A stretch of DNA of 64,000 nt, taken from assembly GCA_963731735.1 (NCBI GenBank), contig CAVSWO010000002.1, positions 628,257 to 692,256 on the forward strand, in the 5' to 3' direction. This document shows, piece by piece, positions 6,279 to 35,060 of this stretch (the first letter of the stretch is position 1; every line of letters begins with the position of its first letter). A program made the position numbers and the translations under genes. Source of the DNA: Candidatus Kerfeldbacteria bacterium. GTDB lineage: Bacteria; Patescibacteriota; Patescibacteriia; SBBC01; CAIJZX01. Below the pieces are notes generated by a model, which made no database searches, was not told the DNA's origin, and worked only from the letters and a program-made list of their open reading frames with translations.

Positions 6279-7959
6279 TTTACTGGTGCTGGGTTTGGTG
6301 GTTTTCGCCCGCCCGGTGTTTGCGCAAGCCTGGTCGATACCTGAGTTTCAGGCAGACATCACGATTAACCAAGACGCATCGATTGACGTGGTCGAAGTGA
6401 TTCGAGTTGACTTTGGCACGGCTAAACACGGCATCTACCGAACCATACCTTTTCGCTACACCGTCGGTGACAATTCGACGGTCAGTGTGCCATTGACGAT
6501 TCGCAGCGTGCGGATGGACGGCCGATCAATCAAATATACAGAGCGGCAGAGTGGAAACGATGTGACGTTGAAAATTGGTGATCCCAACACCACCATCACC
6601 GGCGCGCATGTCTATACGATTGATTATACGGCGCAAGCCGCCATCAATTTCTTCAGTGACCACGACGAGCTCTATTGGAACGTGACCGGTAGCGATTGGG
6701 AGGTGCCGATCCAAAGTGTTAGCGCCAGTGTGCATTGGCCGTCCCAGGTATCGGCTGACCAGCAGCGGGTCGGTTGCTATACCGGCGCCATCGGTTCCCG
6801 GGCGCGTGACTGCCTGGCCCAAGCTGAAACTGGTCAAGCGACGTTTTCGGCGCAAGATTTTCTGACGGTTGTTGTCGGTGCGCCGCCGGGGACGGTGACC
6901 AAACCAGCCAATTACGATACCCTTCGGACGTCGGCCGGTCAATCCGAATTTACCCGACGGTTTCTTTCGATGCCAATCATGAGCTTGAACCTCTTGATTC
7001 TCCTGGGATCGATGGTTGGCATAGTGGTTGCCTGGCGTCGCTACGGTCGCGATCCACGCAGTCGTGGAACGGTGATCGCACAATACGAACCTCCGGCCGG
7101 GCTGCGACCAGGTGAAGTCGGTGTGGTATTTAATGAACGGGCAAACCAGCGCGATCTGTCGGCCACAATCATTGATTTGGCCGTTCGCGGCTATCTTGAA
7201 ATTACGGAAATTGAAAAGAAGCACGCGCTCGGTCTTGGCCACTCAACCGACTACAAACTCAATCTGAAAAAATCCATTAATGATAGCGCTTTGCAACCCT
7301 ATGAACAGCAAATGCTCAAGGGCCTGTTTGGAACAGCCAAGCAGCAGGTCTTATCCGATCGCAAAGGCAAGATGCATACCGAGGTGAAACAAGCCCAAAC
7401 AGGTTTGTATCAACGGGTGGTTAGGCTGGGACTCTTTGACCACAACCCGCAACGCACGCGCTGGACTTTCGCGGGGGTGGGCATTGCCTTACTGTTTTCG
7501 GGTTTTTGGATTGTTCCATCAGGCATTGTGGCGGTACCAGTCATGGGACTGGTTTTCCTGATCGCCGCGCCGTTTATGCCGAAGCGCACGAAAGCCGGGG
7601 TTGACGCATATTGGCAGGCCCGTGGTTTTAAACTGTTTTTAGAAAAGGCGGAGAAGTATCGCCTCAAGTGGCAAGAAAAAGAACACATCTTCGAGCAATA
7701 CTTACCCTACGCCATGGTTTTTGGAGTGGCCGATAAATGGAGCAAAGCCTTCAAGGATCTGCAGCAGGCGCCGCCGGACTGGTATCATGGGGCAGCCGGC
7801 GGTCAATTCAACACCCTTTTGCTGTGGTCAGCCTTGAGTAATTTTACTTCGGTTTCGGCCGCCAGCTTCGCGCCGCCGGCCGCCAGCGGCAGTTCCGGTT
7901 TTGGCGGCGGTGGATTCTCGGGCGGGGGATTCGGTGGGGGCGGCGGCGGATCTTGGTAA
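6238..7959 (+). CDS. DUF2207-like membrane protein with a glycine-rich C-terminus
   Basis: It has an N-terminal signal, a large extracytoplasmic domain, TM helices and the C-terminal sequence SGSSGFGGGGFSGGGFGGGGGGSW. An alternative start lies at 6256. Confidence 0.65.
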   Translation: MKTCLRMWRKLWPSLLVLGLVVFARPVFAQAWSIPEFQADITINQDASIDVVEVIRVDFGTAKHGIYRTIPFRYTVGDNSTVSVPLTIRSVRMDGRSIKYTERQSGNDVTLKIGDPNTTITGAHVYTIDYTAQAAINFFSDHDELYWNVTGSDWEVPIQSVSASVHWPSQVSADQQRVGCYTGAIGSRARDCLAQAETGQATFSAQDFLTVVVGAPPGTVTKPANYDTLRTSAGQSEFTRRFLSMPIMSLNLLILLGSMVGIVVAWRRYGRDPRSRGTVIAQYEPPAGLRPGEVGVVFNERANQRDLSATIIDLAVRGYLEITEIEKKHALGLGHSTDYKLNLKKSINDSALQPYEQQMLKGLFGTAKQQVLSDRKGKMHTEVKQAQTGLYQRVVRLGLFDHNPQRTRWTFAGVGIALLFSGFWIVPSGIVAVPVMGLVFLIAAPFMPKRTKAGVDAYWQARGFKLFLEKAEKYRLKWQEKEHIFEQYLPYAMVFGVADKWSKAFKDLQQAPPDWYHGAAGGQFNTLLLWSALSNFTSVSAASFAPPAASGSSGFGGGGFSGGGFGGGGGGSW

Positions 7960-8735: not shown

Positions 8736-10004
8736 ATGAAACTCGAAACCCTTCCCAACGGCCTGCGCTGCGTGACCGTCCCGCTCCATGATACGAAAGC
8801 TGTGACGGTGTTTGTATTTGCCAAGGTCGGTTCCCGCTACGAGACCCGATCAACTAACGGTATCTCACACTTTATTGAACACCTGATGTTCAAGGGCACG
8901 AAGAAACGCCCGACCACCATGGCAATCTCACGCTTGCTCGATGGAGTGGGCGCCAACTATAATGCGTTCACCTCAAAAGACTGGACCGGATATTATGTCA
9001 AAATCAATCACCAACACGCAACCTTGGCGCTGGATATCGTCAGCGATATGTTGCAGCACTCGCTCTTTAAACCGGCCGAGATCGAGCGCGAACGCGGGGT
9101 CATCATTGAGGAGATCAACATGTACGAAGATAATCCGTTGATGTCGATTGAGGACATGTTTGAATCAGCCGTGTATGGTGATCATCATCCGCTTGGGTGG
9201 AACATCGCGGGTCCACGGTCGGTCATCCGAAAAGTATCCCGTCCGACAATTTTGCGCTATCGCGATCAATACTATCACGCTAAAAATATGTTGGCGGTGG
9301 TGGTTGGGAAAATCCCGGACGGATTCGGTAAAGACATTCACCGAATGTTCGGGACCGTTCGATCGCGTTCGAAAACTCCCCATGCCAAACCGTACAAACC
9401 GCATGCCCGCCGCCATCCGATTCATCTGCGCTGGAAAGAGTTGGAACAGGTGCAGTTGGCGGTTGGCACCAAAGCCTTTAAGTATACGGACCGGCGGATG
9501 CCGGCACTCAGTCTGCTGGCGGCCTTGCTGGGCGGTAATATGAGCTCACGCCTGTTTATTCAAGTTCGGGAACGTCGCGGTCTGGCGTATTCAGTTCACG
9601 CGGCAGTTAATCCGTATGAGGATGTCGGAAGTTTTATGGTCCAAGCCGGGCTGGAGAAAAAACGCGTCCTGGATGCCCTGCGGGTGATTCTGGCTGAACT
9701 TCATAAAGTCAAATCCCAATCGATCGGTCCGGCCGAACTCAAGCGCACCAAAGAATTTATACGCGGCAAAATGGTGCTTGACCTGGAAGATTCCGATTCG
9801 ATCGCGTCGTGGTATGGGCGGCAAGCCATGTTTTTTGGAAAAATCCAATCACCCGAGCAAGCCTTGGCCAAAATTGATGCGGTCACGGCCGGTGATATCC
9901 GTCAGGTGGCCAACCAACTCTTTCGACCGGCGGCGATGCGTCTGGCCGTGATTGGTCCGTTCAAAGACTCGGCACCGTTCGCGTCAGTCCTGCGAACGGT
10001 CTAG
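8736..10004 (+). CDS. M16 family zinc peptidase
   Basis: The sequence ISHFIEHLMFKGT carries the inverted zincin motif HxxEH. Length is 422 aa. Confidence 0.85.
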   Translation: MKLETLPNGLRCVTVPLHDTKAVTVFVFAKVGSRYETRSTNGISHFIEHLMFKGTKKRPTTMAISRLLDGVGANYNAFTSKDWTGYYVKINHQHATLALDIVSDMLQHSLFKPAEIERERGVIIEEINMYEDNPLMSIEDMFESAVYGDHHPLGWNIAGPRSVIRKVSRPTILRYRDQYYHAKNMLAVVVGKIPDGFGKDIHRMFGTVRSRSKTPHAKPYKPHARRHPIHLRWKELEQVQLAVGTKAFKYTDRRMPALSLLAALLGGNMSSRLFIQVRERRGLAYSVHAAVNPYEDVGSFMVQAGLEKKRVLDALRVILAELHKVKSQSIGPAELKRTKEFIRGKMVLDLEDSDSIASWYGRQAMFFGKIQSPEQALAKIDAVTAGDIRQVANQLFRPAAMRLAVIGPFKDSAPFASVLRTV

Positions 10005-10053
10005 TCTCGGCGTCAAGATTGCTTTTTTTTCACGTTTTACGTAGGCTATAGCT

Positions 10054-11100
10054 ATGGCTAAAGCACAATCCTTTGACCTCTCCACCCTCTCGATCCTCAA
10101 GATCATTCTGATCCTATTGGCGGTTGGTTTCTTGTTCCTGATTCGGGATGTGTTGCTGTTGGTGTTTGTGGCCTTAGTGCTGGCGGCGGCGATCGATCCG
10201 TCCATTACAGCCCTTGAACGGCGCGGTATTCCGCGTGGGGCCGGGATTGCAATTATCTATTTGGGGATTTTGGCGATTATCAGTCTGATCGTGGTGCTAT
10301 TTGTGCCGCTGATTGTTGATCAATTGACGCAGTTTACCAAAGCGTTTCCGAACCTGTATGAAAAGGGTTTATCGGTCTTCCAGCAATTCCAGGATAATTC
10401 AACCTTTGACAGTTTCCGTTCGGCGCTGGAAAACCTGGCCCAGGGACTGTCGAACTTAACGCAAGGGATATTCTCGCAGGTATTTGGATTCTTTGGGGGC
10501 TTGTTCTCGTTCATCGGCGTACTGGTCCTGACGTTCTACATGACCATGGAAGAAAAGGGCATGAAGCGGATCGCCGTCGATTTGTCGCCGGCGCGCCATC
10601 GCCCGTATTTAACGCAGTTATTTAACCGGATTGAAAATCGACTGGGTTCTTGGCTGCGTGGCCAGCTGACGCTGGGTTTGATTATTGCCACCATGACCTA
10701 TCTCGGTTTGACGCTGCTGGGGGTCAAATACGCGCTGGTCCTAGCTTTGATTGCCGGAGTAACAGAACTGATTCCAATCGTTGGTCCATTTATCGGTGCC
10801 ATCCCGGCCGTGATCGTGGCGCTATCGATGAATCCATTTTTGGCCCTGTGGGTTTTAATCCTGTACATTGTCATTCAGCAGCTGGAAAATAATTTGATCG
10901 TACCGAAAGTCATGTCGCACGCGACCGGCATCAATCCGGTGATTGTGATCATCGGTATCTTGGTGGGTGCTAAAGTAGCCAACTTAGCCGGCGTAATCTT
11001 GGCCGTCCCGACTATCATCATCATTACGACATTCTTGGAAGATTTTTTGGAGGAGCGGAAGAGTGAAGATCTTCGCTTAGAAGAAGTCGTCAAGAAATAA
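10054..11100 (+). CDS. AI-2E family transporter (PerM/YhhT-like)
   Basis: Multi-TM protein with the ...TELIPIVGPFIGAIPAVIVAL... signature of AI-2E transporters. Confidence 0.8.
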   Translation: MAKAQSFDLSTLSILKIILILLAVGFLFLIRDVLLLVFVALVLAAAIDPSITALERRGIPRGAGIAIIYLGILAIISLIVVLFVPLIVDQLTQFTKAFPNLYEKGLSVFQQFQDNSTFDSFRSALENLAQGLSNLTQGIFSQVFGFFGGLFSFIGVLVLTFYMTMEEKGMKRIAVDLSPARHRPYLTQLFNRIENRLGSWLRGQLTLGLIIATMTYLGLTLLGVKYALVLALIAGVTELIPIVGPFIGAIPAVIVALSMNPFLALWVLILYIVIQQLENNLIVPKVMSHATGINPVIVIIGILVGAKVANLAGVILAVPTIIIITTFLEDFLEERKSEDLRLEEVVKK

Positions 11101-11782: not shown

Positions 11783-13224
11783 ATCGAACATCGCTGACCA
11801 CCACGCTCCCCTACGTGAATGCCGACCCACACATTGGCTTCGCCTTGGAAATTATTCAAGCCGACGTGATTGCCCGCTGGCGACGCCAACGTGGTGACCA
11901 GGTCTTTTTTAATACCGGAACGGATGAGCACGGCATAAAAATTTTCCGCCGGGCCTTGGATGCCGGACTCGAACCCCAGGCCTATGTGGACAAGGTGGCC
12001 GCCAAATTCGACCAACTCAAACCGGCGCTCAACCTTACCTACAATGCATTTACGCGGACGACCGACCCCAAGCACGTGGCGGCCGCCCGGGCTTTTTGGC
12101 AACGTTGCGATGCGGCCGGAGATATATATAAGCAACAGTATCAGGTCAAATATTGCTCGGGCTGTGAGCTTGAAAAAACCGAATCGGAACTCGATCACGG
12201 CCACTGTATCTTACATCCTCAGCTAGAGATCGAAATACTTGATGAAGAAAATTATTTCTTCCGGTTTTCCAAATATCAGTCGCAACTCTTGGCCCTGTAT
12301 GACCAGCAGGCTGACTTTATTGTGCCGGAGCACCGCCTGAAAGAAATTCGAACCTTTGTTGCCGGCGGCCTCCAGGACTTCAGCATTTCTCGGCTAAAAG
12401 AAAAAATGCCATGGGGCGTACCGGTACCGGGCGATGAGCAACACGTGATGTATGTCTGGTTCGATGCGTTGGTTAATTATATTTCGTGTCTGGGCTGGCC
12501 GGAGGAAAAGTATAGCGACTGGTGGCCGTCGATCCAATTTGCCGGCAAGGACAACCTGCGCCAGCAGGCCGCCATGTGGCAGGCGATGCTGCTGTCGGCC
12601 GGAATCCAGCCGTCCAAACAGATTGTGATTCACGGATTCCTGACCAACGGTGGCCAGAAGATGTCCAAGTCGTTGGGAAATGTGGTTGATCCGTTTGCGC
12701 TGGTCAAACAGTTTGGGACCGACCCGGTTCGATACTTCCTGACGCGTTACATTACGCCGTTCGAAGACAGCGATTACAGTTCGACGCGTTTGCAGGAAGC
12801 CTATACCTCGGACTTAGCCAACGGACTCGGAAACTTGGTTTCACGCGTGAGCAATTTGCTCGAACAGCATTGTGCCGGGGCGTATACGCGGTCGCCAAAT
12901 TTCAGTTCGGAGACCTTGCAGGCCTACGATCTGGCCCTGGCCGGCTATCGTTTTGATGAAGCGCTCAAAATCGTGTGGGAGCAAGTGGCGGAAGCCAACC
13001 ATCGGATTGATGCAACGAAACCGTGGGATATGGCCAAACAGGGACAAACCGACGCAGTCCGGGCCTTGCTGAATGAACTGGTCAATCGAATTTTAGATCT
13101 GAATGAATTGCTGGTGCCATTCCTTCCGGGTACGGCCGAAAAAATTGCAACCGCACTGACCGCGCCAGTCCGCAAGGCGCAGCCGTTGTTTCCCCGACTT
13201 GAGACTCCAGCCAAAAAGGAGTAA
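11779..13224 (+). CDS. metG: methionyl-tRNA synthetase (short form)
   Basis: A HIGH-like motif (NADPHIGFAL) and a KMSKS motif are present. Length is 481 aa. The start overlaps the rsmI stop. Confidence 0.9.
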   Translation: MNRTSLTTTLPYVNADPHIGFALEIIQADVIARWRRQRGDQVFFNTGTDEHGIKIFRRALDAGLEPQAYVDKVAAKFDQLKPALNLTYNAFTRTTDPKHVAAARAFWQRCDAAGDIYKQQYQVKYCSGCELEKTESELDHGHCILHPQLEIEILDEENYFFRFSKYQSQLLALYDQQADFIVPEHRLKEIRTFVAGGLQDFSISRLKEKMPWGVPVPGDEQHVMYVWFDALVNYISCLGWPEEKYSDWWPSIQFAGKDNLRQQAAMWQAMLLSAGIQPSKQIVIHGFLTNGGQKMSKSLGNVVDPFALVKQFGTDPVRYFLTRYITPFEDSDYSSTRLQEAYTSDLANGLGNLVSRVSNLLEQHCAGAYTRSPNFSSETLQAYDLALAGYRFDEALKIVWEQVAEANHRIDATKPWDMAKQGQTDAVRALLNELVNRILDLNELLVPFLPGTAEKIATALTAPVRKAQPLFPRLETPAKKE

Positions 13225-30008: not shown

Positions 30009-30056
30009 ATGAAACGCAAGAAACCGCGGCGGTTACGCGCTGTTATAGGATGTAAA

Positions 30057-30710
30057 TTATTTTCGCCTCTTCGTCGAACGCTTTGTGTACTTTGCGGGTG
30101 ATACAGTACATACAAAGCTCATCCAATTATTGCCGCCTTCCGATTTCTGGAACTGCTTGATAACTCGGAAACCATGTTCCCGCAGAATGTTCCTAAATTC
30201 ATTTTTGGAATAAAAGGCAAAAAATCTCGTTACACCGCCGTATTTTTCTTGCGTGATTACTTGTTCATCAACATTACTTTTTTCTTTCATCGAAACCACA
30301 AACATGCCTTGCGGTGTTAACAGACGGCGAATAGAACGAAGGACCTTCGGCAGCCGCCTTTTTGGAATATGGAGCAAGGTAGCAATAGACCACACTGCAT
30401 CAAACTGGTGAGCCGGAAAGCGGAGATCATAAAAGCTCATTTTCTTGAATGTGCCCTTTGGATTGAGTTTTTGTGCTAACGCTAAGAGTCCTTTTGAAGC
30501 GTCGGTACCGATGTAGTCAAAACCGGCCTGAAGTAGATCATGTGCGTCTCGACCGCCCCCACACCCGATTTCGAGGACGCGGTTGCCGTGAATTTGGCGA
30601 TGAAGTTCATCCAGTTCATCTTTCCAAAAATGAAACATCCGATTCGTTGTAGCATACTTCGGCGCAATTTTGTCGTAGGCTTCGATTGTTTGTTTTGTGC
30701 GTAAGTCCAT
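30057..30710 (-). CDS. class I SAM-dependent methyltransferase (Methyltransf_11-like)
   Basis: Motif I reads VLEIGCGGGRDAHDL. It is the first gene of the AT-rich island and is convergent with the helicase gene. Confidence 0.75.
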   Translation of the reverse strand: MDLRTKQTIEAYDKIAPKYATTNRMFHFWKDELDELHRQIHGNRVLEIGCGGGRDAHDLLQAGFDYIGTDASKGLLALAQKLNPKGTFKKMSFYDLRFPAHQFDAVWSIATLLHIPKRRLPKVLRSIRRLLTPQGMFVVSMKEKSNVDEQVITQEKYGGVTRFFAFYSKNEFRNILREHGFRVIKQFQKSEGGNNWMSFVCTVSPAKYTKRSTKRRK

Positions 30711-30921
30711 GAGCGAAAATAATTTATTTCCGATAACGTTTGCGCGTACACGATTTTACGTAGTATATCGGGTACGCGCTGTTGTACGGAGTCGGGGTTC
30801 CGAACATTGACAAGTGTCAGGTTCTATGTAAAAGTCTAACACACTTTGTACATTCCCTGGTAGCTTAGATTCAACAGGGCGTTGTTTCTAGGTAGCCATC
30901 GACTCATTAGGAGACATAGCC

Positions 30922-31251
30922 ATGAGTAGTGGTAGTGTCGCCCGACAGGAGCGCGAGTTTCTGGCGTGTGTGATCCGTCATCTCCCAGAGCTTTTTCCAA
31001 ATGAACGGCAGGCGTGGATTGAAAACCAGGATCTTCTGTCCGAAAGGTTGGAGCTAGCCCTGGACATGGTAAGCCCCAGGATCAAACTCCTTGAACGTCT
31101 AAATGAAGGAGTGACGCGCGTCACAAAAAAAGGTCATGCCGCCAAGATAAGACTCTTTCTGTTCAATCTTGGCTCTGAAGACCAAGTGACTGTCGATAAG
31201 CTTGCACGAGCAATCGTTCAAGCTGTTGACCCAGCATCACTCAAAGAGTAG
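30922..31251 (+). CDS. hypothetical 109-aa protein
   Basis: The gene has a TTGACA-16-TAAAAG promoter-like element, an AGGAGA RBS 7 nt before the ATG, and a strong terminator. The product is not recognised. Confidence 0.55.
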   Translation: MSSGSVARQEREFLACVIRHLPELFPNERQAWIENQDLLSERLELALDMVSPRIKLLERLNEGVTRVTKKGHAAKIRLFLFNLGSEDQVTVDKLARAIVQAVDPASLKE

Positions 31252-31265
31252 TGGCACAGATAAGT

Positions 31266-31309
31266 AACGGACTTCGAGATTACATCAACGAGTCCGTTTA
31301 ATTTTTTTA
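31266..31309 (+). terminator. intrinsic terminator
   Basis: The hairpin AACGGACT-(16 nt)-AGTCCGTT is followed by TAATTTTTTT. Confidence 0.7.
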
Positions 31310-31394
31310 CTAGGAACCCCGATTTCGTACAACGTTTGCGTCTCATACGACCGTCTGCCGTAGCAATAGCGAAGGCAGATGTCGTATAGACGCT

Positions 31395-31418
31395 GTTAGG
31401 AGATGTAACAATAGGGTC
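31395..31418. repeat. left copy of the 24-bp inverted repeat GTTAGGAGATGTAACAATAGGGTC
   Basis: Matches the reverse complement of 32072..32095 at 22 of 24 positions. It abuts the stop codon of the kinase gene. Confidence 0.8.
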
Positions 31419-32055
31419 ACTTGGTTAGTAGTTTAATCGCTTTCTTCAGCTGTCCGCTAAAATCGTTGTCCATGTTGAGAACCTTGAATTTGTACTTCCG
31501 CGCTTCTTTATTAAAAAACTGTCCATAGTAACTGACCATTTGTGCGATTTTGTACAAAGTCTTTTTGTTTAAAGTCTTGCGAAGTATCCAATCGTTTGGA
31601 GTTGAGCTTTTCTTTGTATCATGCACAAACTTTTCAATATCAGACTTCACAAGAAAAAGAACGCGGAAATGTTTACCGCCATATTTTTTAATAAGTCGAG
31701 CTGCAAGTTGTGGCGTTATGTGGTAGCCCTCTAGAATGTAGTCATTCCCATCTTTGATTTCAGATATGGCAAACATATCTAAAGCATCATAACTTGCTAC
31801 AGCTTGCTTCATGTAATTTTTGGCAACCCGATGTGGAGTGTTGCGTGAATATGTTTCATCATTTGTTTTACCTTTTTTGGAACTGTGAGGATACAATCTC
31901 GCAAGCGCTTGCTTGGAGACATACTTCGAAACATATTCACGAACTACAACTTGCAGCGTGTCAGAAGCAACCCACTGGATTCCGAGCCCTTTGGACAGTT
32001 TTTTGGCGAGTGTGGTCTTACCACATTTTGGCGGACCACCGATTAAATAAATCAT
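31417..32055 (-). CDS. P-loop NTPase/kinase-fold protein, possibly a nucleoside/nucleotide kinase
   Basis: The Walker A motif is IYLIGGPPKCGKTTLAKKL. Length is 212 aa. The gene is AT-rich. Confidence 0.65.
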   Translation of the reverse strand: MIYLIGGPPKCGKTTLAKKLSKGLGIQWVASDTLQVVVREYVSKYVSKQALARLYPHSSKKGKTNDETYSRNTPHRVAKNYMKQAVASYDALDMFAISEIKDGNDYILEGYHITPQLAARLIKKYGGKHFRVLFLVKSDIEKFVHDTKKSSTPNDWILRKTLNKKTLYKIAQMVSYYGQFFNKEARKYKFKVLNMDNDFSGQLKKAIKLLTK

Positions 32056-32071
32056 AGTTGTGATTCAGCAA

Positions 32072-32095
32072 GACCCTATTGTTATTTCTCCTAAC
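32072..32095. repeat. right copy of the 24-bp inverted repeat (GACCCTATTGTTATTTCTCCTAAC)
   Basis: Lies 17 nt upstream of the kinase start codon. It is the reverse complement of the 31395..31418 repeat. Confidence 0.8.
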
Positions 32096-32265
32096 GTCAG
32101 GGATATACGAAGTTTTGCGACGAAGGAGTAAAATTTGGGTGAGGGGCGAGCCGAGCCCCGAACCGTATGTCCCTTGTTAAGTGACCCGAACGGAATGAAA
32201 TGGAGTGAGAGCGCAGCGGGGCTTGAGTTGAGGATTTGTCCTTCATTATAAAAAAGGGCAAAAAA

Positions 32266-33084
32266 TTATTTTTCAGCAACCCAAAATAATCTGTGACTAC
32301 TTAATTTTATACCTTCCTTGTTAAGTTTTTTATCAACCTCTTCAAGATGTGCCTTGTCTTTCATTTTATCAAAATCTGGAATTATTGGGGCTCTTTCAAG
32401 AATTTCTATAACATCGTTAATTGACGAATACACCTGATGAAATTTAAAGTATTTTGATTCAACGAGTTTCATTCCAGATTGTGCCAATAATTTTTTTACT
32501 AATTCAAGTTTTGTTTTCTGATTAGGATAATTTTGCCCTCTTCTAAAAATTTTTTTGAGTTCGATTTTATCCTTCTCGCCAATAGTTTCTTCAATCATCA
32601 GCCCTCCTTTTTTTAAAACGCGAAAACTTTCTCTAATAAAATCAATGTTGGCAGAAAGGGGTCCTCTTGAGCTGAAAATAATATCAAAATGGTCATCTTC
32701 AAAAGGCAAATTTTTTCCATCTGCAACCTTGAAAATAACATTTTTAGCTTCAACAGATTTTTTAAGTTTATCTGCGGATTTTATGTAATCCTCAAAAGGA
32801 TCAATGCCAACAATTTCTTTAAAAAATGGGGAAAGTTTGAGTGTTAGTTCGCCAGACCCACATCCCAAATCCAATATTTTAAAATTTTTGTTGGCGAATT
32901 TTTTAAGAAACTCAAAAAAATTTGGTTTTTCTCCAGCGATTAATTTACCTTGTCCATGAAGCTCGTATTTTTTAAATTTCGTTGAACTTTTCTTATAAAA
33001 AATATCGTGATGATCTTTCATGTTTGTCTTGTTATTAAATAATTTTTTGCCCCTATATATTTTTGGACAAATCCTCAATTTCAC
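32266..33084 (-). CDS. class I SAM-dependent methyltransferase, very AT-rich
   Basis: Motif I is ILDLGCGSGELTL, and the post-I acidic residue and FEDDHFDIIFS are present. The start may be the internal MKDHH at ~33021. Confidence 0.7.
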   Translation of the reverse strand: MKLRICPKIYRGKKLFNNKTNMKDHHDIFYKKSSTKFKKYELHGQGKLIAGEKPNFFEFLKKFANKNFKILDLGCGSGELTLKLSPFFKEIVGIDPFEDYIKSADKLKKSVEAKNVIFKVADGKNLPFEDDHFDIIFSSRGPLSANIDFIRESFRVLKKGGLMIEETIGEKDKIELKKIFRRGQNYPNQKTKLELVKKLLAQSGMKLVESKYFKFHQVYSSINDVIEILERAPIIPDFDKMKDKAHLEEVDKKLNKEGIKLSSHRLFWVAEK

Positions 33085-33280
33085 TTAACGATTGCGCGTA
33101 GGCGAAGTTCGTCGGTGATACAATCGTACCATCACCGGCGAACTTAGGCGAGCGGTTTCTAGGGGATGGCCTTCGGGCGGCCACAGAAACCCGAGCCGCC
33201 TACGCGCTGTTGTACGATGATTTGCCGACCGCCGCATATGTAAAAGAAAAGCGTGGTTGTCTCCATGTTACCCGACATTC

Positions 33281-33335
33281 TTGACACGAACTAATCCTTA
33301 TGCTATCCTGCTTTGTCAATTCATGGTGAATTGAC
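33281..33335 (+). promoter_or_regulatory. sigma70-like promoter (TTGACA-17-TATCCT) followed by a perfect 9-bp palindrome GTCAATTCA-TGG-TGAATTGAC, a putative operator
   Basis: Read directly from the sequence. The palindrome lies at the predicted transcription start. A GGAGG RBS lies 7 nt before ATG 33358. Confidence 0.55.
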
Positions 33336-33357
33336 TGCTCCTTTCGGAGGTAGAGCG

Positions 33358-33660
33358 ATGCCAGACATTCGCGTGTCCATTCCTCATCGGCTCGGCAAGC
33401 CCGAAGCGCTCAAGCGAGTTCGCACGCTCCTGACGAACGTCAAGCGTGACCATGGTGACCAGGTCAGCAACCTCGAGGAGCGCTGGCATGACAACGGTGC
33501 CAGGTTCAGCTTCAGTACCATGGGCTTCGATGTCTCGGGGCAGCTGACCGTGAGTGACCGAGAAGTCACTGTCACGGGCAAGCTCCCCTGGCTGGCGGGC
33601 ATGTTCAAGGGTCAGATCGAGGACACGATCCGCGATCAGGCCAGCGAGCTTCTCGTCTAG
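33358..33660 (+). CDS. small protein resembling the 'putative polyhydroxyalkanoic acid system protein' family (PHA_gran_rgn-like)
   Basis: The sequence MPDIRVSIPHRLGKPEALKRV...GQLTVSDREVTVTGKLPWLAGMFKGQIEDTIRD fits the ~95-aa family pattern. The track start of 33313 was replaced by the RBS-supported ATG at 33358. Confidence 0.5.
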   Translation: MPDIRVSIPHRLGKPEALKRVRTLLTNVKRDHGDQVSNLEERWHDNGARFSFSTMGFDVSGQLTVSDREVTVTGKLPWLAGMFKGQIEDTIRDQASELLV

Positions 33661-33691
33661 GGCGCTCCAAGGAATCATCTCCGATAACATG

Positions 33692-33730
33692 GGTCCGGGA
33701 GTAGCGATACTCTCGGACCTAGCTTTTCTT
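33692..33730 (+). terminator. intrinsic terminator
   Basis: A 12-bp stem GGTCCGGGAGTA-GCGA-TACTCTCGGACC is followed by TAGCTTTTCTT. Confidence 0.65.
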
Positions 33731-33899
33731 ACAACATAGGGAGGCAAATTTTCGTACAACGTTTCGGCGTAGACGATAGTGGCGACAGCGCGGAGGCGGT
33801 ACACTTTTCTTGACCGCCGGAGCGACGAGCCATTTCGCGTATACACCAGTGCTTTATATGACGTTTCAGTCTGTCTAATCATACTACCAGCCGGTGTCT

Positions 33900-34343
33900 T
33901 CAGTAAAACTTTCCTATACCAATGTTCTCTAGGGCAAGTTTTGTCTTGAGGCAACACATTGACTGGAAGGTTGCCGATGGAAAAACCAGGTGAGAGCATT
34001 CCATTGATCTCCAGGTTCCATATTTGTTCATTTCTACTGTCCATTTATCTGCAGTGAGGTACAATATCAAAGTCATTCTCGATCTGTAGAAAGTCTGTGC
34101 ATGATGTGAACAAGCTTTAACATCCTCAGGTGCAAGTATTATCCCAGCTTCTTCATGAGATTCGCGAATAATAGTCTCTTTTGCTCCGTTGTTTTCGCGA
34201 CCTTCCAGATGACCAGCAACCACACTGTAATTTCCATCTTGATAGCCTGTATTTAATATCTTCGGAGAAGTAAAACTTGCCCATCTTTTTTCAAGGACAA
34301 GATAAGCTGCTACGAAGGCTCTGAACTTTTCTTTGCTGTACAT
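33900..34343 (-). CDS. NUDIX hydrolase, possibly frameshifted near 34050
   Basis: The Nudix box GHLEGRENNGAKETIIRESHEEAGI is present. The overlapping ORF 33316..34044 in another frame reads NEQIWNLEINGMLSPGF, which resembles the usual Nudix C-terminal region. A perfect TATAAT -10 and an ATACGAAC-agag-GTTCGTAT palindrome lie upstream. Confidence 0.65.
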   Translation of the reverse strand: MYSKEKFRAFVAAYLVLEKRWASFTSPKILNTGYQDGNYSVVAGHLEGRENNGAKETIIRESHEEAGIILAPEDVKACSHHAQTFYRSRMTLILYLTADKWTVEMNKYGTWRSMECSHLVFPSATFQSMCCLKTKLALENIGIGKFY

Positions 34344-34465
34344 AAGTTTATTCTCTAACAGACAGAAGACGAAATGCCATATAACTCGTTATTATACGAA
34401 CTCTGTTCGTATCATAGCCCCTCGAGCCGGGTTTGGCCAGAAAAATACTGAATATATTATGCCAT

Positions 34466-34497: not shown

Positions 34498-34506
34498 TTG
34501 GATGTG

Positions 34507-34578
34507 AACATTGAGTGAGATTTGAACTCACGACCTTCTCCTCCGTAGGGAGACGCTCTATGACTGAGCTATCAATGC
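34507..34578 (-). tRNA. tRNA-Arg (anticodon ACG) with an atypical D-loop lacking GG
   Basis: Manual fold: acceptor stem GCATTGA/TCAATGT (G1-T72 wobble), D-stem GCTC/GAGC with loop AGTCATA, anticodon stem TCTCC/GGAGA with loop CTACGGA, T-arm GTGAG-TTCAAAT-CTCAC. Length 72 nt, with no encoded CCA. Confidence 0.65.
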
Positions 34579-34948: not shown

Positions 34949-35060
34949 CGACGGAGGCGGGAATCGAACCCGGATCTCGAGAACTTTCCGTTTCGATCTG
35001 ACCATCTCGAGATCGTGCTGGCTTGGGAAAGCCAGCCTGTACCACACAGCCTCCTCCGTC
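34949..35060 (-). ncRNA. 112-nt noncanonical tRNA-like gene with an 8-bp acceptor stem, 4-bp T-stem and very long extra arm (tRNA-Sec / allo-tRNA-like architecture)
   Basis: Minus strand: GACGGAGG...(A)GGCTGT-GTGGT-ACAGGC / GCTGGC-TTTCCCAA-GCCAGC / a 10-bp extra arm GATCTCGAGA...TCTCGAGATC / CGGG-TTCGATT-CCCG / CCTCCGTC-G. The anticodon loop has 8 nt, so the anticodon is ambiguous. CCC is the likeliest, with U33 and A37. Confidence 0.5.

Follow-up and report, generated by a model that had tools for sequence, protein, structure and literature searches.

Inverted repeats around a P-loop gene of a Candidatus Kerfeldbacteria bacterium: probable ends of an integron-type gene cassette

Why should one small gene be framed by two long and almost perfect inverted repeats? 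The question is posed by a locus on contig CAVSWO010000002.1 of a Candidatus Kerfeldbacteria bacterium, from which we analysed a stretch of 64 kb, referred to hereafter as the window. The left arm of the repeat pair (GTTAGGAGATGTAACAATAGGGTC, window coordinates 31395-31418) and the right arm (GACCCTATTGTTATTTCTCCTAAC, 32072-32095) are complementary at 22 of 24 positions, with 653 nt between them and a whole span of 701 bp. They enclose a single open reading frame (ORF) of 212 amino acids on the minus strand (31417..32055), whose stop codon shares 2 nt with the left arm and whose ATG lies 16 nt from the right arm. An earlier note on this DNA had reported the repeats, the one enclosed gene and the length of the unit, and its coordinates and sequences proved exact. 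Its designation of the gene as a kinase was sustained in part: the product belongs, at the level of its Walker-A motif, to the P-loop NTPases, a cargo family common in Patescibacteria, and kinase remains an unproven label.

The repeat pair did not arise by chance. It is the only one in the 64 kb with at least 22 matches in 24 within 1 kb, a pair of such quality appeared in none of 40 resamples of the local composition, and the 24-mer, allowing up to three mismatches, occurs exactly twice in the window where no copy is expected. Taking together the array in which the gene lies, the copies of the unit in other genomes and the pairing of its ends, we put at roughly 87% the probability that the two arms are the ends of one integron-type gene cassette in an array of six.

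The repeat arms as probable ends of a cassette

The gene lies in a low-GC island at approximately 30.0-34.4 kb (GC 0.34-0.45 in the windows from 30 to 33 kb, compared to about 0.54 outside), flanked on one side by the gene for a UvrD/AddA-like (UvrD/PD-(D/E)XK) helicase and on the other by a tRNA-Arg gene. The cargo of the island is small and mutually unrelated: two S-adenosylmethionine-dependent methyltransferases, the P-loop protein, a polyhydroxyalkanoate (PHA)-granule-like protein, a NUDIX protein and one hypothetical protein. All six genes bear their own end-to-end inverted repeat, each of a different sequence. A repeat scan gave the neighbouring brackets 30042-30066/30713-30737, 30781-30801/31313-31333 and 32228-32285/33023-33078, and a fourth, 33209-33230/33739-33760, came from the cassette analysis. 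The left arms all begin with GTT, the right arms all finish with AAC, and the units have short, conserved direct repeats between them. Neither the brackets of the neighbouring genes nor the conserved hairpin sites between the units had been noticed in the earlier note.

The segments that separate the units are hairpins with the pattern ...ACATC-RYYYAAC-A-[stem]...[stem]-RAAC-GTTRRRY-GAAAT.... In an alignment of 24 sites AAC and GTT were invariant, and the 11-bp stem carried compensatory double changes in 9 of its 11 pairs; the cores R'' (RYYYAAC) and R' (GTTRRRY) are present in all five sites of the window. A covariance model built from the alignment (R1) replaced AAC...GTT hairpin and regular-expression scans, which were noisy in AT-rich genomes. 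With R1 the window showed four strong sites and one degenerate site, which all lie at 30.7-33.9 kb on the minus strand, with none elsewhere in the 64 kb; other genomes yielded 73 more sites in 17 loci and then 33 in nine further loci. No Rfam family matched the hairpins; the one match was the tRNA-Arg. The site that belongs to the P-loop cassette is attC-like and occupies 31322..31406 on the minus strand (51.3 bits, E 4.5e-9, with a fold in single-stranded DNA). Its inner hairpin comprises 61 nt (31334-31394), and the G at 31333 would be the last base of the cassette.

Read along the minus strand, the two arms resolve into parts. The right arm of the earlier description (32072..32095) is the 5' end of the cassette and consists of G|TTAGGAG (the R' core), GAAAT (conserved in the family) and AACAATAGGGTC (an extension specific to this cassette); the arm recurs, its R box covarying, in 14 arrays. 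The left arm (31395..31418), which overlaps the stop codon, is the 3' arm and consists of GACCCTATTGTT, ACATC and TCCTAAC (the inverse core, R''). The consensus at cassette positions 9-12 from the 5' end was AAAT in 42 of 65 cassettes, the 3' arm read ATGT (reverse complement) in 35 of 65, and the two mismatches between the arms (ACAT against AAAT) were kept family-wide. The hexamer AGGAGA, pointed out earlier, is indeed in both arms. It falls in variable positions of the R box, where other copies of the cassette have ATATGA, AAGTGA, ATGTGA or AGGTGA; it is not a conserved motif, and we rejected it as a conserved ribosome-binding site on the ground that its letters vary among copies of the same cassette.

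Relatives were collected from 80 loci with homologs and from five metagenome matches to the arm pattern, which together gave 14 arrays with this P-loop cassette (loci are numbered with an L below). Wherever a contig held both arms the unit was 698-701 bp long, and in 14 of 14 arrays the gene pointed the same way with respect to the flanking sites and to the asymmetric arms (upstream GAAAT, downstream ACATC). The sites upstream differed among copies of the cassette. Four variable bases of the R box covaried between the two arms (AGGA/TCCT, AAGT/ACTT, ATGT/ACAT, some with single mismatches), and a 12-nt extension of the arm was unchanged across copies whose proteins were 73-82% identical. In a single-cell genome (L004) a copy with 78% identity stood among small co-oriented genes, in a run that begins beside a divergently transcribed tyrosine recombinase. 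Every cassette of that run had its own bracket of 18-26 nt, and in the bracket of the homolog (GTTATATGAAATAACAATAGGGTC...GACCCTATTGTCACATCACATAAC) the inner 16 nt were kept while the four variable R-box bases were changed on both arms. A second lineage of the gene (53-56% identity) had an unrelated yet paired bracket of up to 48 nt, and the most distant homologs, which resemble resident genes, had none. The search for further copies of the 24-mer that the earlier note had advised thus returned the two in the window and five metagenome matches to the arm pattern, all on the same cassette and in the same orientation.

Two pairs of copies delimit the unit. L002 and L003 carry an identical cassette among different neighbours; their identity starts at AAC|GTTAGGTG and spans the gene, the 3' arm and nearly the entire downstream hairpin. 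L009 and L089 are 64% identical upstream of GTT and 85% across the 701-bp unit; past the unit, the half of the downstream hairpin nearest R'' is about 98% identical, and the sequence after the next GTT 48%. Within the pair, the arms were 100% identical, the ORF 85% and the inner hairpin 79%. Because of these boundaries the unit, so far as sequence comparison can tell, has the anatomy of an integron cassette: 5'-TTRRRY..., the ORF, ...RYYYAAC, its own hairpin and G. The P-loop cassette would accordingly be 762 nt long (31333..32094, minus strand; TTAGGAG..., ORF, ...CCTAAC, hairpin, G). The earlier suggestion of a cassette-like mobile unit was therefore right in kind, as an integron-type cassette, but its 701-bp bounds leave out the 61-nt hairpin downstream. 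The occurrence of an identical cassette in different neighbourhoods indicates that the unit is mobile.

Several other observations were made on these copies. In L002 the P-loop cassette has a right junction (8779-8800) that is without the RAAC-GTT end and passes directly into a gene for a peptidase C39; the site has probably been rearranged internally, and the junction was excluded from the placement of the crossover. In L091 (around 10041-10060) the P-loop cassette and its successor, whose R' core is the same (GTTAAGTG), have between them a minimal 'site' of 15 nt, AAC-ACGCCTACCGTCGCC-GTT, perhaps the product of a deletion or the scar of a recombination event. A near-identical type of hairpin follows the gene in L007 and precedes it in L009, a hint that inner hairpins may be swapped or converted separately from the cargo. 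The P-loop family itself occurs both bracketed, in two lineages with unrelated arms, and bracket-less in many genomes of the candidate phyla radiation (CPR; loci L010-L084), and a paralog with 69% identity (P0056) lies on the same contig as the window, which is 822,872 bp long in all. These forms are possible material for studying the origin of cassettes.

Pairing of the cassette ends and other explanations of the repeats

How a gene comes to be bracketed follows from the position of the crossover, which we infer by analogy with integrons to be G|TT of the R' core. Insertion at that point would split the basal stem of the cassette's own site into two halves. An integrated cassette would carry the distal part of its R' arm at the 5' end and the R'' arm, 700 bp away, at the 3' end, and this separation would therefore appear as a cassette-specific inverted repeat around the gene. 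In the excised circle the arms would rejoin around the 61-nt inner hairpin (...ACATCTCCTAAC-[61-nt hairpin]-G|TTAGGAGAAATAAC...) and lengthen its stem by 24 bp. Sites resident in an array would fold less well than the site of a free cassette, and the longer stem would favour folding of the latter into a hairpin or cruciform, preferentially on the bottom strand, and hence its re-insertion. Use of single-stranded or cruciform DNA is presumed in this scheme, as are the position of cleavage and the enzyme that acts.

Pairing of a cassette with itself was general. Among 57 cassettes lying between consecutive sites and anchored at GTT/AAC, the ends of the same cassette paired over a median of 22 nt compared to 4 nt for ends of different cassettes, and at positions 13-24, beyond the conserved 12 nt, identity was 8.0 of 12 for self and 3.6 of 12 for non-self. 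In an enlarged set of 65 clean-ended cassettes the median was 24 nt (range 0-48 nt) and 50 had at least 18 nt. Some seeming failures of pairing were due to a 43-nt insert that displaces one arm, as at 32185-32227.

Folding with single-stranded DNA parameters gave about -21 kcal/mol for the P-loop site in the array, where its R' arm is that of the next cassette. As a circle the same site reached -36.5 kcal/mol on the top strand or -40.7 kcal/mol on the bottom strand, with the arms forming a near-continuous basal stem of 24 bp. Over 51 sites circularisation gained a median of 12 kcal/mol (a gain in 49 of 51), and the bottom strand was the more stable in 49 of 51, the same bias as in classical attC sites. 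On the bottom strand the conserved mismatches (AAAT against ACAT) become a T-G wobble and a T-T mismatch; in this model they may mark the identity of the strand.

A number of points weigh against an integron-type cassette. Neither a circular cassette nor an excision junction nor an empty site was seen, and mobility is read from comparative contexts. AAC and GTT are invariant, so the crossover can be placed only to within a few bases. The identity of L003 and L002 stops 6 nt before the next GTT, and the right junction of L002 is aberrant. The inner hairpin diverges far faster than either the arms or the ORF (L003, L006, L007, L009, L004), which the simple model does not account for. The array of the window may be inert or static, since there is no recombinase in the window. 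The recombinases associated with related arrays lack the I2 insertion described below, so that the use of folded DNA is suggested by covariation and not by enzymology. Finally, the additional 12 or more base pairs may be tolerated instead of functional, and their functional role is a prediction of the model.

This last point can be put as an explanation in its own right, namely that whatever extends past the conserved core of about 12 nt is a neutral relic of how cassette and site originated. Classical IntI1 can do with R-box pairing of no more than about 7-13 bp in the sites that it recombines, and the length of the extension varies from 0 to 48 nt, both of which suit a relic. It would not be expected of a relic that the arms of L009 and L089 stay identical while ORF and inner hairpin drift, that the 12-nt extension outlasts protein divergence to 73-82% identity, that two lineages of the gene keep the pairing although their arm sequences are unrelated, or that 50 of 65 cassettes retain 18 nt or more. 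We consider a neutral origin very improbable.

To much the same degree we doubt that the arms serve gene expression, either as a long-range RNA stem around the ORF, affecting stability or translation, or as paired operators of a dimeric regulator, both of which had been proposed earlier. A read-through transcript would hold both arms, one in the 5' untranslated region and one at the stop codon. However, in four cassettes with reversed ORFs the polarity of the bracket followed the array and not the ORF, and the brackets were as long as elsewhere (median 26 nt, compared to 24 nt), which speaks for a bracket that is part of the recombination site and has no part in gene expression. The arms moreover begin and finish exactly at the recombination cores, the bases of which covary, and AGGAGA is not conserved. 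Arm sequences are specific to each cassette, which leaves no common operator, and that of the P-loop cassette occurs nowhere away from its gene. An RNA stem may still form as a by-product.

There is even less to recommend a transposon-like element, such as a miniature inverted-repeat transposable element, with a transposase recognising terminal inverted repeats, another of the earlier candidates. Inverted repeats do bound a small unit, and the unit is found in many genomic contexts, but the arm occurs with the P-loop gene only (in its two window copies and in all five metagenome matches), each neighbouring cassette has different arms, insertions always lie between attC-like hairpins in one orientation and without target duplications, and the shared block includes the downstream hairpin past the arm. 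The least credible of the earlier proposals is an invertible segment flipped by a site-specific recombinase for phase variation of gene orientation: the arms are inverted, each with a recombinase core (GTT/AAC), and two of the six window cassettes have their ORF on the other strand, yet the gene had one and the same orientation in each of the 14 arrays, and an inversion at GTT/AAC would exchange the two sides of the GAAAT/ACATC asymmetry, an exchange not seen even in cassettes with reversed ORFs.

The six cassettes and their surroundings in the window

The top strand of the array is taken from homology to be the minus strand of the window, because the arms of the L004 homolog and the adjacent recombinase fix its polarity. 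The plus strand, chosen from the arm with the extra bases by analogy with the aadA attC, was tried as the top strand and overturned by homology to L004, L023 and L033; the asymmetry of the hairpin arms in these sites differs from that of the aadA attC. All the cassettes and sites given below are accordingly on the minus strand.

The array begins with the NUDIX cassette (33760-34384; ORF 33900..34343). Its site (33749..33864, arms read from the sequence) is degenerate, with AAC of R'' changed to AAA, and scored 22.2 bits (E 0.0095). The PHA-granule-like cassette follows (33089-33759; ORF 33313..33660, reversed) with the highest-scoring site (33078..33220, 88.5 bits) and 22 nt of own-end pairing. 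The methyltransferase-2 cassette (32095-33088) has its site at 32084..32187 (69.6 bits), upstream of the P-loop cassette. Beyond the latter are the orf109 cassette (30737-31332; ORF 30922..31251, reversed), with a site at 30726..30792 (51.3 bits) and 21-26 nt of own-end pairing, and the methyltransferase-1 cassette (approximately 30009-30736), the last of the array. Its bracket pairs over 25 nt at 88%, and its terminal site is truncated to the R''-L'' half (30009..30053), which abuts the stop codon of the helicase gene (30008).

In the methyltransferase-2 cassette the 3' arm is displaced by a conserved insert of 43 nt (32185..32227, minus strand), of the type GACCCGAACGGA...GAGTGAG in reverse-complement reading; the bracket resumes beyond it, where 32228-32285 pairs with 33023-33078. 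The insert lies between the R'' core and the 3' arm, with GGGTC in place of the usual ACATC, and the same module is present in cassettes of L002, L003 and L031. The reversed ORF of the PHA-granule-like cassette is accompanied by a promoter-like TTGACA-17-TATCCT with TG (33281-33309, plus strand) and a strong terminator-like hairpin of 14 bp (33690-33721, plus strand), and looks like a self-contained gene inside a cassette. Over the array of the window as a whole, promoter-like matches were not in excess (8, compared to 7.9 in shuffled sequences).

The integrase-proximal end of the array is flanked by tRNA-Arg(ACG) (34506..34578, minus strand), and the stretch from there to the first cassette contains no integrase gene. 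Beside the terminator of the tRNA-Arg, at 34386-34425, there is only an L'-R'-like half-site. With half-sites at both ends (30009-30053 and 34386-34425), the array has the look of an integron that has decayed or been truncated. Beside the array, among overlapping spurious ORFs, a sequence resembling a tRNA, with an insert or a very long variable region, was found at 34950-35060 (minus strand). It scored 29.5 bits with the Rfam tRNA-Sec model (threshold 47 bits, E 0.0013) and was missed by ARAGORN.

No tyrosine recombinase was found in the 64-kb window, either with Pfam on 20 ORFs or by tblastn. With five sites and one truncated site, six cassettes and no integrase, the array is a CALIN (attC sites clustered without an integron-integrase), a class that in the usage of IntegronFinder (Cury 2016) reportedly requires at least two attC sites with no integrase nearby; its sites were recognised by the covariance model built here and not by the attC model of IntegronFinder, and the site family is non-canonical.

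Recombinases of related arrays and known integrons

In six related arrays (L004, L023, L033, L093, L094, L095) a recombinase of 270-279 amino acids is encoded immediately upstream of the cassettes and divergently. These proteins scored 201-224 bits with XerA_Arch (NF040815, NCBIfam; cut-off 220), 185-208 bits with the integron-integrase model TIGR02249 (cut-off 265) and 156-184 bits with XerC/XerD, and their best matches in the PDB were XerA (4A8E, 5HXY). Alignment to the integron-integrase model skips approximately model positions 180-250. Consistent with this, residues 5-196 and 197-273 of the L004 protein align to 3-199 and 241-317 of VchIntIA (2A3V), and about 41 residues (VchIntIA 200-240), the IntI-specific insertion I2, are missing from the array-linked recombinases of all six arrays. 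By sequence, the enzyme is best described as an IntI/XerA-like tyrosine recombinase without I2; NCBI already labels the proteins 'site-specific tyrosine recombinase/integron integrase'.

The recombinase adjoins a V-type ATPase operon in three genomes (L004, L094, L095), which points to a platform that is conserved and sedentary on the chromosome of that lineage. In L023 (5016-5852) it reads through six UGA codons; this Gracilibacteria genome uses genetic code 25, which means that lineages with differing codes share the cassette family. A sigma-70-like TTGCCA-17/18-TATTAT is present in the variable loop of seven or eight of the 11 L004 sites, facing the downstream cassette (for example 7061-7090, 10293-10321, 12257-12285 and 6282-6311). 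There were 32 promoter-like matches in L004, several inside sites, compared to 20.4 ± 4.6 in shuffled sequences. This is suggestive of site-borne promoters, which would differ from classical, promoterless cassettes and form no part of the explanation of the window's array.

Eleven cassettes of class 1 integrons (L085-L087) served as a control. Their ends were perfectly self-complementary over 10-13 nt (catB3 12, aadB 12, GES-5 13, aac(3)-Ia 10), and aac(6')-Ib and a cupin cassette fell in the same range, which reaches 3-6 nt past the textbook 7-nt core. Because class 1 cassettes pair over 10-13 nt, the bracket is an enlarged version of a property already present in integron cassettes. The difference is one of length, with a median of 24 nt and a maximum of 48 nt here.

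Other features are likewise shared with integron cassettes and their attC sites, whether of class 1 or of sedentary chromosomal integrons: arrays of small, mostly promoterless and co-oriented ORFs; imperfect hairpins in which AAC and GTT are the sole invariant bases, with R'' and R' cores; the plan of an ORF followed by its site, with the 5' end complementary to the cassette's own R''; a bottom strand that folds better; and, in relatives, a divergent recombinase gene at one end of the array. The sites differ in detail. Canonical attC sites have extrahelical bases near L'', an unpaired central spacer of 5-6 nt in each arm and a crossover at G|TT (Nivina 2016, PMC5027507). In the present family the spacer between R and L is 1 nt on the R'' side and 4 nt on the R' side, the L stem is symmetrical without a bulged (extrahelical) base, and five more bases, including two fixed mismatches (GAAAT/ACATC), are conserved outside the 7-nt core. 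The family thus works like an integron yet lacks two features that define membership, the extrahelical base of the site and the I2 insertion of the enzyme. It is I2 on which the extrahelical bases of attC dock; the gain of I2 is seen as the step that made single-strand recombination possible, and a 'lack of intermediates' has been noted (PMC7790495). Sites without extrahelical bases are consistent with recombinases without I2.

Comparison with Xer systems and with archaeal integrons gave a similarly mixed picture. The array-linked recombinases share with archaeal XerA and bacterial XerCD their size, a score at the level of XerA and the absence of I2. Unlike enzymes that act on dif, they adjoin arrays of cassettes and score higher on the integron-integrase model than on XerC or XerD, and their sites are long covarying hairpins in contrast to the 28-bp dif. 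Archaeal integrons (Ghaly et al. 2022, PMC9668308) are likewise arrays outside the classical Proteobacteria that were found in metagenome-assembled genomes. Their integrases reportedly keep the IntI-specific additional domain and their attC sites fold canonically (PMC9668308), whereas the Patescibacteria enzymes lack this domain.

The explanation of the bracket itself is classical integron logic, and the finding as stated is mostly that: the cassette ends are the halves of the cassette's own recombination-site stem. The long cassette-specific stems, the non-canonical architecture of the sites and the recombinase without I2 appear to be undescribed. We found no description of integrons in CPR/Patescibacteria, which in view of incomplete coverage of the literature is absence of evidence only. 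A wider reading, to which we would give somewhat less than even odds, is that the window belongs to a widespread and apparently undescribed family of integron-like platforms in Patescibacteria, with covarying sites that have no extrahelical bases, long stems formed only in the excised cassette and an I2-less recombinase, representing an intermediate or sister state of integrons or an independent solution. Current integron finders may miss or mis-score such arrays. If confirmed, they would provide a natural system in which to ask whether recombination of hairpin sites preceded I2 and how strand and orientation are chosen without extrahelical bases, and would mean that ultra-small, host-dependent bacteria keep a dedicated platform for gene capture.

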